A DNA stretch of 64,000 nt, from contig NC_058369.1 of the NCBI RefSeq assembly GCF_018350175.1, positions 6,076,001 through 6,140,000 of the forward strand, in the 5' to 3' direction. Numbering within the stretch: the first letter of the stretch is position 1; the number at the start of each line of letters is the position of its first letter. Position numbers and translations under genes: made by a program. The notes beneath the pieces were generated by a model. That model was given only the letters and a program-made list of their open reading frames with translations. It did not search any database and had not been told where the DNA came from. Source of the DNA: Felis catus. Its lineage: Eukaryota. Of this stretch, positions 17,898 through 24,085 are shown in pieces.

Positions 17898-20800
17898 ATG
17901 GAGGAACATGTCTACTCAGGTGAGAGGGCTCTCTGGAGCTGACCCTGGCAAAACCGAGCACCTGGCCTCCTCCCTTCCACCCAAGAGAGGAGAGGGGTTC
18001 CTGGGTCTCTCTCTGGGAAGAAGGCCCAGCAAGGGGTGAGGGGGAGGTGAGCCCCGACTGGCCTTCTGGGCACAGAGCCAAGCAGGAGGGGGAAGCCGCA
18101 GGCCCCTCCCTGCCCTGACTCAACGCCCTCCAACAAAAAAAATCGGCTCCATCTCCGGTGCTGGGAGACCGATAGATTTGGAAGTAGAACGGGTACTCAG
18201 AGCAAGTAGAATCCAGCACGATGAATCCTCACGGCCAGGGCGAGGGCAGGGGGCCCGGGCCCACGGTGGGGAGTCAAGGTAGAGTCCTGGGGCCCCAGGG
18301 GTTGTGGTGAGGCTCCGGGGGGTCTGACATCCAGGGAAAAGTCTGGGGAAGGGCTTGGATATGGAGGAAGAACACAGACCCAGCGTCCTGGGTTTAGAGA
18401 AGGGGTGCGGGGTGGAGGACAGCCACAGGGTGAGGGCAGGAGGTCCAAGGGGAAGGAGGACCCAGCTTCCCGGGCATGAGGCTGGAGCTCGAGCACTGGT
18501 GCGTGAGGGGGTAAGGGAAGAGGGTCACAGCGAGAGCTGGGTGGCAGTCGGCCACCTGATGGGGGACCATGGAGGGAGGGTCTCAGCTCCCGGCCCCCCA
18601 CCCCGGGCTGCCTTTCTGGACGGCGCCCTGGCCCCAAGTCAGGCTTGCTGACCACTGGGGTGTGGGCAGAAGGGCTGGACGGGTGGAGGGACAGATTCAG
18701 AGATGCACAGATTCAGAAGTGGATGGAGTCGGGGTGGGGGGGCACCGGTGGGGCACGAAGGCGGCATGTGGGGAAGGTGTGCGGAGTAGGCTGGGGGTCC
18801 ACTGAGACCCACGGCTTTAGTGTGGGCTCTGGACAGGCTCCCAGGACTTAGGGGCTGTGGGTGACGGGGAGACAGGCAGAGCCAAGCCCCGTCTCACGCT
18901 GCACCGCTTGGCGCTCCCCCCTCAACGCCCGGCAGAGTTCCCAAACCTTCCCGGAAGGCGGCGGTGGTGCTGTCGGCAAGGGACCCAGATGGCACTGTTG
19001 GGGCTGGTGACCGTCATGCTGTGGGCCGGGCTGCTGACCCTGCTCCTCTTCTGGCGTGAGGACACCCCCAGCCCCATGCGGCCCCTCTCCTGTGCTCTCT
19101 CCCAGAACCCCACTTTCAGATGCTGGGACGTCACGCCCCTCCGAGTCCAATTTCCCCATCGTGCCTCCCACCTTGTCCCCAGCGGCCCCCTCCCGAGGCC
19201 CTCTGCCCGCCCCCCACCCGAGAGCTCCCCACCCCGTCCAGCGTCTCTGTCTCCCATCCTTTCTGTGCCTCCCGAGTGGTATGTACCCAAGGCCTCCCTC
19301 CCCAGCTGACAAGTGGGGAGGTGTGGTCGGGGGCTCCTGAAAACCCGTCTTTGCCCCTCCTCTTCTCCCCTCCCCAGACTGGGACGCTGTACAGAACCTG
19401 AAACAGCTGGAAGAAACCGCCGCCCAGAACGGTAGGGGGGGAGGGGTAGGGGGGAGAGGAGGCAGGGAGGGGGGCTCTCGTCCTGCTTCGGCCACGGGCC
19501 ACTGTGGGACATGGGAGAAGGACTGGGCTCCAGCATCCCCTGCCGGGAAGTGGGGGTCAGCCTGCGTTGCCCCCTCCCCGTGGGGTGAAAACCCGGAGCC
19601 TCTGGGAGAGACGGGGGGGCTCCACGAGGTGTCTGATGGGCTGTTAAGTAATGGCTCCAGGCCTCGGTTCCCTCACCTGTAAAGTGGGCATCATTTCAGG
19701 GTGTCGAGGCAGAAACAAGCCGAGACTTGGTGAAGCATTTAGACCTGCCTCCAGTGAGCTTTCAGGAAACGCCGGCTGCTTTTAGGTTGCGTTCTGGGTG
19801 GGGGGAGGGTGCACGTGTTCATCCTATTCTTGCCTGCGTCTTCCTCGGTACCTTGTCCCCAAAATGAAAATGTGAGGGGACCCTGCACTCGGGGCCAGGG
19901 AGGGGAAGGATTTGAGGACGTGCCTTCCTGGTTCCTGAGGACACATCGTCTTTCCTGCGGCCCCAGTCTCTCAGGTTGCCAAGGACTTGGAAAGACACAG
20001 AGGGGACGAGATGGCCCAGAAATCCCGGGGTGAGTGATGTCAGCTCAGGTCGAGGAGGAGGAGTGGGGTGGGGGTGGGGGAGCCCGGATTAACATGTGGA
20101 CAGAGTGCTCTAGGCCACCTGTGAATGGCAAAGTGAGCAGGGGACCCCGAAGACAGAGGCGAGAAGGACAAAGGGGCCAGCGGGGGAGCTGGGGGGGGGG
20201 GCAGGGGCGGCCCTGAGGACCTGCTTACCACTGAGCCCCCTCCCCTGCACCCAGCTGCCCAGGTGTCACAGAACATGGAGGAAATCCAAGCTGAACAGAA
20301 AAGGATGAAAGCTCAGGGTGAGAGGCTGGTGGGGACGGGGGTCCTAGAGCTGGGAGGGACCGTGAGGCTGGGGGCCGGGCTCGGGGACTCCCAGCCCTGA
20401 CCCCAGCCCGGCCCCGTCAGACTCTGAGCTCTCCCGGAACCTGGATGGACTTCGTTCGGACCTGAGCAACCTCAAGTCCCAGAGTGAGCCTTGGGAGGGG
20501 ACGGGGTGGGGGGGGGGGGCGGGGGGGTGCGCTCCAAGCTCGTCTCTGACCACCGTCCCCCACCCAATCACCCGAGGCTTGAACGAGAGGCGCACAGCCT
20601 TGCACTCGTTGGAAAGGCTCCAGCAGGAGGTGGTAAAGCTGTGGGTTGAGCTCCACGTGTCCAACGGTGAGTGTGCTTGTGAGTCTGGGCCTGTGGCGTG
20701 CGAGCGACGAGACGGGTGTGGGGGGGTGTGTGCTAGAGGGCTGCACGTGACAGCGTGGACGGGTGTGGGCTTATGTGTGCGGCAGGGTCCATGGGGGACA

Positions 20801-23559
20801 TGCGGCAGTTTCTCTCTGAGTCCGGCCACCTCTCTCCACGGAACTGGAGCTGGGGGGGTGGGGGGAGCTCGCATGCTTTTTTCCCTCCTTCAGGTTGAAG
20901 CTTCCCTGTGTGTCACCATCTCTGGGTTCGCTTTGCTTCTCCTTCCTCTGCCCCTCGTGGCTCAGAGGAGGGTCATCAGTAGGACGCCCTCAGCCACAGC
21001 CCTCCCAGAAGATTGTCTGACCAGCCACGGGGCTCAAGGGGGCGGGTCCCCTCTGCAGAGACGGGGCAATGCTGGTGGTGACAAGGCTTGGGGTGAGGGG
21101 TGGCCCCGGCAGGCTTCAGGAAGAGCAGAAGTCCCGTCAGCGTGCCTTCGACCTGGGACAGGAACCCGGGCGCTCCCCACCCCCACCCTTGGTTTTTGAC
21201 TTTCCACCCCTGGGAAGCCCCTGCTGCCCTAGTTGGCGAAGAGAAGAGGAAGGTTCTGTGCTTGGTGTGGAGTGCAGCCCCCCGGGGACATGCCGTGGCT
21301 GTGGGAATCCCAGCCAGAAACCCGGCAGTGGTCCCTCTGGGGAGGGCTCTGGGCCACGTTCATGTGGATGGATGACCTCCCAGTTCCCACCCGGTCCCTG
21401 GGGTGACCTGGGGGCTGAGGCCAGCTCCAGGGCTGTCTCTTGATGGGGACACAGGCAGGGTACCTCCCTCCAGGTTTCCTTCAAGTGCCCAGCGATATCC
21501 TCTTCCGGTTTTAATGTTCCCCACCCCCCTGCACCAGTGGCCACATACTGGTTACTGGCCCATGTGTGAGAAACACATCCAGCTTTGATCCCCCAGAGTT
21601 TGGGGACCCCAGGTCTCTCTTAAAAATTCCTCCCAAGCTCTGGAGCCCTCTCTGCACGTCATTCCAAGAAAAGCTGTTTTCAATCAAGAGTGAGTCAAGC
21701 CAGTAACAGTGGGTTTAACCCCCCATCTGGGAGTCCTGGGTGGGAGATGTGGTGACAGTGCCTAAGAGTTTCTCCGGGATGTGGACAAGAGGAGACAGAG
21801 ACCAAGGCGGCCCCAGGTCAAGGCCATGCGGACCCAGCCCTCCCTAAGCTCTCCTGCTCGGTCCCTCCAACTAGACAGAAATCGTCGCATTCTCCCCAAA
21901 TCTGGTCAACAAGGCTGGTTTTGGGGGTGCCGGGAGCAATGGCCACCAGGGTTGTCACTGGAGCTGTTGGTGGGGACAATACAAGGGGACCATGATGCTG
22001 GCAACCGTGGCCTCGGCAGGTCGGCCCTGGTGATTAAGCCGTGGCTGGTGTGAAGACGGTGTTGGCCGTGCTGGTGGCACTGGAGAGAGGTTGCTGGCGA
22101 TCCTGGGTCCCCCCGGTGATGGCGGTGGGACTGAAGGTGCCACTGAGAGTGGTGGGGTTGGTGGCCATGGTGTTGGCGGTTGACACGCTTCTGACCGTGA
22201 ACGTGTTTGTGGTGATTCCGTTGGTGGTCGAGGGGTCACGGGCCACAGAGCTGGTGACGTGGTGATGCCGCGGGTCTTTTTGTGGGGCTGATGCTGGCAG
22301 AGGCCAAAGAGCTGCTGGCCAAGAGGTGTCTACGATGACGGTGTCGGTGACAGGCATTCTGGGGGGGGGGCGGGGAGGGGTGATATTTGTGGCAATGGTG
22401 CGGGCAGCCGAGGTGCTCCCTCCGGGTGGCTGGTCTGGCCGGGAAGAGGGGCAACCTGCAAGTTGGTCTGCTTTCAGCCCGGACCCCAAGAGTGACCCCA
22501 GGAGAGACGCTGCCACCCACCCTGCCTATTGTCCCCACGGTGCCAGCCACGGCGCCGGCCACAACGTCCGCCACCGTGCTGGCCACAGCGCCCGCCACGG
22601 CGCCGGCCACAGAGCCCGCCACGGCGCCGGCCACAACGTCCGCCACCGTGCTGGCCACGGCGCCGGCCACAGAGCCCGCCACGGCGCCGGCCACAACGTC
22701 CGCCACCGCACTGGCCACAGCGCCAGCCACGGCGCCGGCCACAGAGCCCGCCACGGCGCCTACCACGGCGCCCACCACGGCCGCACCCCTGAGCCTCTCC
22801 TCCGCCCCAGGCTCCACGTGTAACACGTGCCCCGAGAACTGGGTCAACTTCCAGAGGAAATGCTACTACTTCGGCGAGGGCGCCAAGAAGTGGATCCAGG
22901 CCCGGTTTGCCTGCAGCAAACTGCAAGGGCGGCTGGTCAGCATCCACAGCCAAGAGGAGCAGGTGGGCGGGGCTCTGCGGAGGGCGTGGCCAGCAGGGGG
23001 CGGGGATCCCACCGCGTCCTCTTGTGCGGTGGGGGCGGGGACCCCAGGCACAACCCCGCAGCCCCTGCAGCCCCGTCCTGCTCCCCAGGACTTCCTGGCC
23101 AAACGCGCCAACAGGAAGGGCACCTGGATTGGCCTTCGGGACCTGGACATAGAGGGGGAGTTTATCTGGATGGATGAGAACCCCCTGAACTACAGGTGAG
23201 GCCCAGACTCCGACGGGGGCGGGCGGGGGGTGCCTGTCCGCAGTGGTCGGGTTGAGGGGAGGGGATGTGGGCAGCCGGTGTCCCTGGGCTTGCAGGGCGT
23301 GGGGAGTGGGGAATCCAGGGATGGGGGGAGGGGCCCAGACCCCGAGGGATGCGTCTAGGCGGAAGGCAGTAGGGCTCCTGCCCCCGACCCCATCCTCTGA
23401 CCTGAAGTCTTCTGCTCCAGCAACTGGCGGCCGGGGGAACCCAACAACCAGGGCCAGGGCGAGGACTGTGTGATGATGCAGGGCTCCGGGCAGTGGAACG
23501 ATGCCTTCTGTGGCAGCCGGCTGGACGGCTGGGTGTGTGACCGGCTGGCCACATGCTGA
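17898..23559 (+). CDS. FCER2: Low-affinity IgE receptor CD23 (isoform a), 290 aa: join(17898..17919,18936..19055,19378..19431,19967..20029,20255..20317,20421..20483,20577..20666,22811..22962,23089..23195,23421..23559)
   Basis: Kozak gccATGG; MEEHVYS/EFPNLPGRRRWCCRQGTQMALLGLVTVMLWAGLLTLLLFW (TM)/HWDAVQNLKQLEETAAQN; three 63-nt stalk exons; 90-nt neck exon; CTLD CNTCPENWVNFQRKCYYF...WIGLRDLD...EPNN...WNDAFC...DRLATC*. All introns GT-AG; total 873 nt. Confidence 0.97.
18221..18239 (+). CDS. FCER2: CD23b alternative first coding exon (MNPHGQ)
   Basis: ATG AAT CCT CAC GGC CAG G in intron 2, homologous to human CD23b MNPPSQ; phase 1; donor reads GCGAGG (GC rather than GT). Confidence 0.7.
21940..22420. 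repeat. (GGT/TGG)-rich low-complexity tract in FCER2 intron 8
   Basis: ggtggtggggttggtggccatggtgttggcgg and similar runs. Confidence 0.6.
22546..22785 (+). repeat. GC-rich minisatellite: 20 x 12-bp units (GCCACNNNNNNN) in 72/60/72-bp higher-order blocks
   Basis: Units gccacggcgccg(A), gccacaacgtcc(B), gccaccgtgctg(C), gccacagcgccc(D), gccacagagccc(E) in order ABCDAE-ABCAE-ABCDAE, plus 3 degenerate units. Confidence 0.95.
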
Positions 23560-24085
23560 CCGCCCCTCCCCCGCCACCTCGGCCCCCTCCCTGGGGTTCC
23601 CCGGGAGGTCCTTGGAGACGCAGACCCTGATGGCCCCCTGCCCACCTGCCAGGTGCACCCCTGCGTTGCTCCCCCAGCTCTGACACAGGAGCAGCCGGGC
23701 CCACGGCGGGGCCCGCAGCCGCGGCCTGGATGCCTGTTTTGTGGCTAAGGCCCCAGCATCCCTTTCTCCTGCCCAAGAGGAAGAAGGGCTGTTGACCCCT
23801 CCCCGGCTCCTGCCAATGCCCCTGAGGGCCTGTCCCTTACTCCTCAGCCCAGCAGGCTGTCACCATGTCCCTGCCTTCAAGGGCTCAGAGTACCCACCTC
23901 GAGAACTTTCCAGAGAGCCTCAGACCCCTATGAGCTTCCTCTGTCGGGCCGCCCCGCAGTCTGCTGGAGTCAGGACCACACCCCCGCCCCACCCCTGGCC
24001 TCCCCAGAAGCAGCCCCCGTGTCTTAGCACCCCAGGGAGAAGTCCCCGGCTCAGGCAGCCAGCCCCCTTGCCCCCAGCCCATGTC

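Follow-up and report, generated by a model that had tools for sequence, protein, structure and literature searches.

The FCER2 locus and the extension of exon 9

The window, by which we mean the whole stretch of 64,000 nt of cat DNA analysed here, carries on its plus strand the exons of FCER2, the gene for CD23, and their translation yields the cat RefSeq proteins. The features around exon 9 are the following.

20577..20666, plus strand: FCER2 exon 8, end of the coiled-coil neck, with a phase-1 donor common to both forms (placed by its boundaries and by the joints from 20666)
22458..22477, plus strand: long-form (upstream) splice acceptor, AG at 22476-22477, with 11 pyrimidines (7 T) at -20..-3
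22478..22810, plus strand: alternative 5' extension of exon 9, 333 nt, adding 111 aa and matching the RefSeq insert
22478..22542, plus strand: non-repetitive lead-in of the insert, conserved across orders
22500..22501, plus strand: second in-phase AG, weak pyrimidine tract, no use seen in 4 runs
22535..22781, plus strand: 12-nt (4-codon) minisatellite, 20.6 copies, with a 72-nt higher-order unit (3.3 copies)
22791..22810, plus strand: short-form (normal) acceptor, whose pyrimidine tract also forms the last codons of the insert; joint 20666->22811 in 4 of 4 runs
22811..22962, plus strand: exon 9 core, start of the C-type lectin domain (PF00059 match)

The donor of exon 8 reads AACG/gtgagt at 20666. 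Three upstream AGs, ending at 22462, 22477 and 22501, are in phase with the normal acceptor, whose AG ends at 22810. The best pyrimidine tract among the three belongs to 22477 (11 pyrimidines, 7 of them T, against 5 and 9 for the other two), compared with 14 pyrimidines for the normal acceptor. A preliminary description of this DNA, made from its letters alone, had portrayed the 333 nt before exon 9 as an intronic stretch without stops in the exon-9 frame, preceded by two phase-matched candidate acceptors ending at 22477 and 22501. Translation bears out the open frame: 110 stop-free codons at 22480-22809 run on in frame into GSTCNTCPENW, and the junction codon, formed by the last G of exon 8 and CC, encodes an alanine that brings the insert to 111 aa. 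Its 110 whole codons specify 32 Ala, 30 Thr, 22 Pro and 6 Ser, and neither cysteine nor any aromatic residue. Pro, Thr and Ser together make up 52% of the insert and Pro by itself 20%, arranged in a tandem 4-aa unit. It thus has the high Pro/Thr/Ser content, the tandem repeats and the lack of cysteine and aromatic residues of mucin-type (PTS) sequences. The Thr/Pro/Ala-rich insert between neck and lectin head that had been foreseen is confirmed, and its residues are identical in RefSeq models.

The open frame alone is weak evidence, because 43% of 10,000 base shuffles of the insert stretch are also stop-free and two of the three plus-strand frames are open; the preliminary description was right to warn that such a repeat opens cheaply. 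With regard to base composition, the repeat at 22545-22785 is rich in CpG (observed/expected 1.09 versus 0.41 across the rest of intron 8), and methylation of these sites could bear on acceptor choice.

Two acceptors of exon 9 in assembled RNA

Logan contigs of four runs from four studies (24 were listed) served as the RNA sample; their RNA status was guessed, and they come without tissue labels. A joint with GT..AG borders leading from 20666 to 22478 is present in three of the four runs (X2, X11 and X13, from three studies), and the short joint 20666->22811 in all four. Two acceptors are thus in use at FCER2 exon 9, and the long isoform is real at the RNA level. The junction proposed for the acceptor ending at 22477, in phase with the exon-8 donor, was accordingly found in the assembled contigs of three runs, and because these 20666->22478 joints exist, the label "intronic" does not hold for some of the transcripts, in which exon 9 begins with this stretch as an alternative 5' extension. 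The second proposed acceptor, ending at 22501, is in phase as stated, but its tract is weak and none of the four runs contains a 20666->22502 joint; we have dropped it.

Contigs with the long joint had depths of 25.8, 55.3 and 76.1 in X2, X11 and X13, and those with the short joint 48, 108.9 and 31. By this rough measure the long joint accounts for about a third to two thirds in these three runs, contig depth being a poor measure of transcript level. In run X3, which had the deepest short joint (1834.5), only that joint is listed, and one of its contigs is continuous over 20638-22575 and thus unbroken across 22478. The absence of the long joint from X3 hints at sample-dependent use, though contigs lose rare variants. 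The other FCER2 introns also give GT..AG joints in the four runs. Since the segment 22478-22960 matches the cat genome only once, no retrocopy was found, and a retrocopy or paralog as origin of the joints was rejected. The contigs are short and none of those listed covers the whole gene; a full-length long mRNA is implied by the RefSeq models and by a buffalo protein from Logan assemblies (P0167). No indel within the repeat is listed in the four runs, whose contigs are fragmentary across it.

Long unspliced contigs over intron 8 (20667-22361) occur in all four runs at a low depth similar to that of other FCER2 introns, which we read as pre-mRNA or retention. These contigs, together with database models that are read-through predictions (P0013, P0015, P0069), are what one would expect if the database isoforms were an annotation artefact, or a product of intron retention, built from unspliced reads. 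This explanation is contradicted by the GT..AG joints 20666->22478 in three runs of three studies, by the single genomic copy and by the same N-A junction in distant species, and we find it hardly credible.

Three further observations concern other parts of the gene. An alternative first-exon joint, 18276->18934 (GT..AG), is present in two of the four runs, next to 17916->18933 in all four, and fits the CD23b-type start of the 302- and 413-aa cat models. A non-canonical joint, 20089->21088 (TA..GC, with 20 letters on one side), is seen in two of the four runs with loose ends nearby and is probably due to a short repeat common to another locus. Finally, run X13 shows a 9-nt deletion at 24047 and several substitutions in the 3' UTR region, which are probably allelic.

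Distribution of the long form among mammals

Two cat models in RefSeq, XP_023100449.1 (401 aa) and XP_023100444.1 (413 aa), contain an insert that is letter for letter the same as that of the window. The novelty that had been assumed for the isoform is lowered accordingly. From two homolog searches, one representative search and three look-ups of clusters we retained 317 FCER2-like proteins (92 long-type, 215 short-type, 10 unclassified), after multi-lectin matches, two non-CD23 lectins and the window's own translation had been left out; the set is without marsupial CD23, the representative search being crowded by multi-lectin proteins. Long models of the junction type come from 39 species of seven placental orders, a tally over retrieved and nearly all predicted models: 13 carnivorans (Carnivora), 2 pangolins (Pholidota), 2 horses (Perissodactyla), 6 bats (Chiroptera), 14 artiodactyls (Artiodactyla), the tree shrew (Scandentia) and the armadillo (Cingulata). 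The orthologous frame is kept in the predicted long models of relatives, as the idea of a coding extension had implied, with the proviso that only in-frame versions would get annotated as such isoforms.

Insert length ranges in eutherians from 39 aa (armadillo) to 131 aa (camels), and within felids from 83 aa in the cheetah over 106 aa in the jaguarundi to 111 aa in the cat. Bovine long forms are found in RefSeq (XP_010805182.1) and in GenBank (AXP98869.1, titled "transcript variant X8"); the latter entry suggests that a transcript has been handled by someone. One camel model enters within the repeat, and pig has an additional variant with 8 aa more at the junction. Database records thus differ within the dromedary (91/107/131 aa) and within the pig (8 aa), possibly as a result of assembly collapse.

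Every retrieved named primate, colugo, mouse/rat, rabbit, afrotherian, whale and seal model is short at the junction, and the long form is not among the human and mouse records retrieved, for which 15 members were listed per cluster. Absence from annotation is weak evidence, because several felid X1 models (lion, tiger, jaguar, bobcat, leopard cat) are short too. We infer that the human and mouse absence weighs more, both species being deeply annotated. We considered whether the long form and sugar binding were lost together and rejected a tight link: mouse CD23 retains its sugar site (PMC6791321), and the mouse and rat models are short.

Some models deviate at the junction. That of a mole-rat (P0079) has a non-mucin read-through there. 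A single record with a rodent-like lectin start (P0099) carries a motif resembling the lead-in followed by non-mucin residues, and judging from these residues it may be a decayed remnant of the long exon. In the platypus a short model stands beside models in which a Pro-rich insert of 21-22 aa occupies this junction, and the echidna likewise has such an insert (P0345, P0349-P0353); the platypus models also include variants shifted by one codon at the junction. Homology of the monotreme to the eutherian inserts fails against shuffles, since in all four comparisons the alignment was no better than with shuffled sequences; a common origin is for this reason unproven.

Conservation of the insert

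Twenty-nine long forms were aligned, and for 12 selected taxa the mean identity to cat was taken. Over the first 20 residues of the insert it is 0.73, the same as for exon 8 (0.73), compared with 0.66 for exon 3 and 0.86 for exon 9; for the lead-in, the values are 0.69 in pig and 0.75 in vicuna. As controls, peptides from elsewhere in intron 8 were compared with cat, giving 12/37 identities in pig and 16/30 in camel, below the lead-in values of pig and vicuna, and 24/31 in bear; these controls are small and were aligned locally. The peptides in question belong to predicted cassette or read-through products of camel, pig and bear, to which 20983-21155 and 21752-21844 of intron 8 align.

A search for the insert pattern caught 46 distinct inserts and missed that of the armadillo; subtracting 3 monotreme and 2 read-through sequences leaves 41. 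All 41 distinct eutherian inserts contain 45-63% Pro+Thr+Ser and no cysteine, and the repeat unit varies by lineage. Insert lengths modulo 4 fall into all four classes (25/9/6/3 of 43, the two read-through models included), and therefore in-frame indels besides whole 12-nt units have been kept. Conservation of the insert's tail need not reflect selection on the protein, because the same nucleotides serve the normal acceptor as its pyrimidine tract.

It is conceivable that all of this reflects tolerated leaky splicing, in which an old cryptic acceptor leads into a GC-rich repeat that is usually open and harmless, and the long protein has no role. Openness is cheap, as the shuffles show; parts of intron 8 can be aligned between cat and pig, camel or bear even though they are non-coding, and pig and camel have other minor intron-8 cassette models (P0182, P0014). 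Moreover, the deep run X3 is without the long joint, and human and mouse records manage without the long form. Harmless leakage would, however, have to account for a junction at the same position in seven orders, for a lead-in conserved as strongly as exon 8, for a mucin-like composition retained with differing repeat units and through in-frame indels that are not whole units, and for long-joint depths of the same order as those of the short joint in three runs. We consider it unlikely.

Predicted properties of the long protein

The short cat protein has an N-G-S sequon at residue 158 that is missing from the long protein, as had been predicted from the junction, while the long protein retains N65 and the lectin-domain sequon. 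The lectin domain PF00059, the only Pfam domain above cut-off, is intact in the long form, and within the insert there is no Pfam match at cut-off. The EPN and WND motifs of the sugar site are found in the cat protein. In a structure model of the long cat protein, one helix spans residues 21-160 and ends at the start of the insert; for residues 161-285 no secondary structure is predicted. The model as a whole is poor (mean pLDDT 49.5, with the lectin domain itself below 50), and its low confidence in the insert is for that reason uninformative.

A separate block 5' of the long acceptor

A further feature, separate from the parts of the isoform, lies directly 5' of the long acceptor.

21870..22434, minus strand: triplet-periodic block, Thr-rich on the minus strand

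Associated with it are a minus-strand stop-to-stop ORF at 22034-22525 and a minus-strand acceptor-like tract near 22434. Its strong triplet periodicity (0.09) was reached by none of 500 shuffles, and among 315 windows only two, which lie on the mucin repeat, exceed it. The idea that the block is an exon of an antisense gene found no backing: the block is single-copy in the genome, none of 2817 candidates scored, there is no Pfam or Atlas match, and no RNA joint leads into it in the four runs. Rodent and camel read-through peptides seemed similar to it, but the similarity did not exceed that of shuffled sequences. We rejected an RNA hairpin in which the G-rich block would pair with the C-rich repeat and so hide the acceptor. 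Compared with 20 shuffles, the fold of 21880-22830 has z = -0.12; the inverted pairs present are all short and imperfect, and the reverse-complement alignment scores 31 against a shuffle mean of 34.5, with 149 of 200 shuffles as good. The simplest reading is that the block is a decayed GGT-type triplet repeat; it may also be a dead or inverted mucin-type exon.

Discussion

Our preferred interpretation is that the long form is a functional, O-glycosylated spacer between the coiled coil and the lectin heads, and we put its probability at roughly two in three. Exon 8 joins either 22811 or 22478, and choice of the latter adds 111 Thr/Pro/Ala-rich residues that are likely to be translated. Glycans of the GalNAc type, suggested by the composition, would stiffen the stretch; at the approximately 0.25 nm per residue of a glycosylated chain it would measure roughly 25-30 nm. 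The three heads would be freed from the fixed geometry of the neck, which might allow them to reach microbial sugars or IgE complexes that lie far apart, and they would be shielded against proteases near the head; avidity would change as a result of their uncoupling. Shedding would persist, with the spacer leaving as part of the shed fragment, because the ADAM10 site of human CD23 is membrane-proximal (PMC7218085); the soluble CD23 released would be longer and glycosylated. The share of the long form is likely to vary with cell type or tissue.

A different function of the long form is conceivable as well. Its O-glycans might themselves be bound by selectins, siglecs or galectins, or might form a shield; alternatively, the insert might weaken cooperation between the heads and make the long form a low-avidity, dampening version of the receptor. 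The more than threefold range in length (39-131 aa) argues against a fixed geometry, yet variable length is also usual for spacers. Uncoupling of the heads could lower IgE binding, because trimers give CD23 about 100-fold avidity for IgE and the stalk itself may contact IgE (PMC10089267). Taken together, we regard such a function as quite improbable.

Several known systems bear comparison with the proposed spacer. A globular head on a mucin stalk is the plan of CX3CL1, CD8 and TIM-1, and in CD45 the O-glycan exons RA, RB and RC illustrate how splicing tunes such a stretch. In CXCL16, the binding domain is kept off the membrane by a Thr/Pro-rich O-glycosylated stalk (PMC7218085). All of these are type I proteins whose stalk is membrane-proximal or that use cassette exons. 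By contrast, the cat insert belongs to a type II lectin, where it sits atop the trimeric coiled coil, and is added through an alternative 3' splice site, and it has no sequence relationship to those mucin stalks (no Pfam match). The preliminary description had likened it to the neck repeat of CLEC4M (CD209L, DC-SIGNR). This analogy is sound insofar as CLEC4M is a related type II C-type lectin in which a tandem repeat sets the distance from membrane to head. In CLEC4M, however, the repeat unit is a helical coiled-coil segment of 23 aa, which oligomerises and is polymorphic in humans (PMC7822156), while the cat insert lacks helical coiled-coil units, consists of a 4-aa Thr/Pro unit and lies distal to the coiled coil. 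The comparison remains loose, because a helical coiled coil is set against a non-helical stretch that is spliced in by acceptor choice.

The described isoforms CD23a and CD23b differ by 6-7 cytoplasmic residues, and they are the only two named in the available text of the reviews (PMC10089267, PMC13501459). The long form shares with them the gene, the type II topology, the coiled-coil neck and the C-type lectin domain. Whereas CD23a and CD23b differ in the cytoplasmic tail, the long form alters the ectodomain, adding 111 aa between neck and head and dropping an N-glycan sequon. Its closest counterparts are the predicted long isoforms in RefSeq and UniRef, in which the cat insert is identical and other species agree in junction and composition; these models are automatic and named only "isoform X1/X2" or given as a variant record. 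No description of the isoform was found in open PubMed Central and bioRxiv text. The available portions of PMC3751673 and PMC4467842 do not describe it, and the words "mucin" and "O-glycos" do not occur in the main text of PMC6791321. The isoform is thus already in databases and apparently undescribed in the searched literature. Since the sequence could already be found there as a predicted isoform without a name, what is gained is the recognition of the isoform and of its distribution.

CD23 has a controlling role in IgE levels and antigen capture and, except in simian primates, also in sugar recognition (PMC6791321). The long form was probably present in the ancestor of placental mammals, and primates and murids have probably lost or silenced it. 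More tentatively, and at somewhat less than even odds, we propose that it represents an ancestral, regulated second architecture of CD23 in placentals, and possibly, in view of the monotreme insert at this junction, in all mammals, that is switched by cell type and was lost in primates and murid rodents. Such a switch would reset how avidly CD23 binds IgE and glycans, and what kind of soluble CD23 is produced, in cats, dogs, horses, pigs, cattle and bats, with the length-variable repeat tuning the effect. If the spacer interpretation is true, a glycosylated ectodomain spacer of about 40-130 residues that is common in pets, livestock and bats would change the view of CD23 geometry, of its shedding and of the antibody reagents directed against it, and would be relevant to veterinary allergy and parasite immunity. 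Human and mouse CD23 would then be the reduced case, and the long form would have been lost in the two groups, primates and murid rodents, that underlie almost all CD23 biology.
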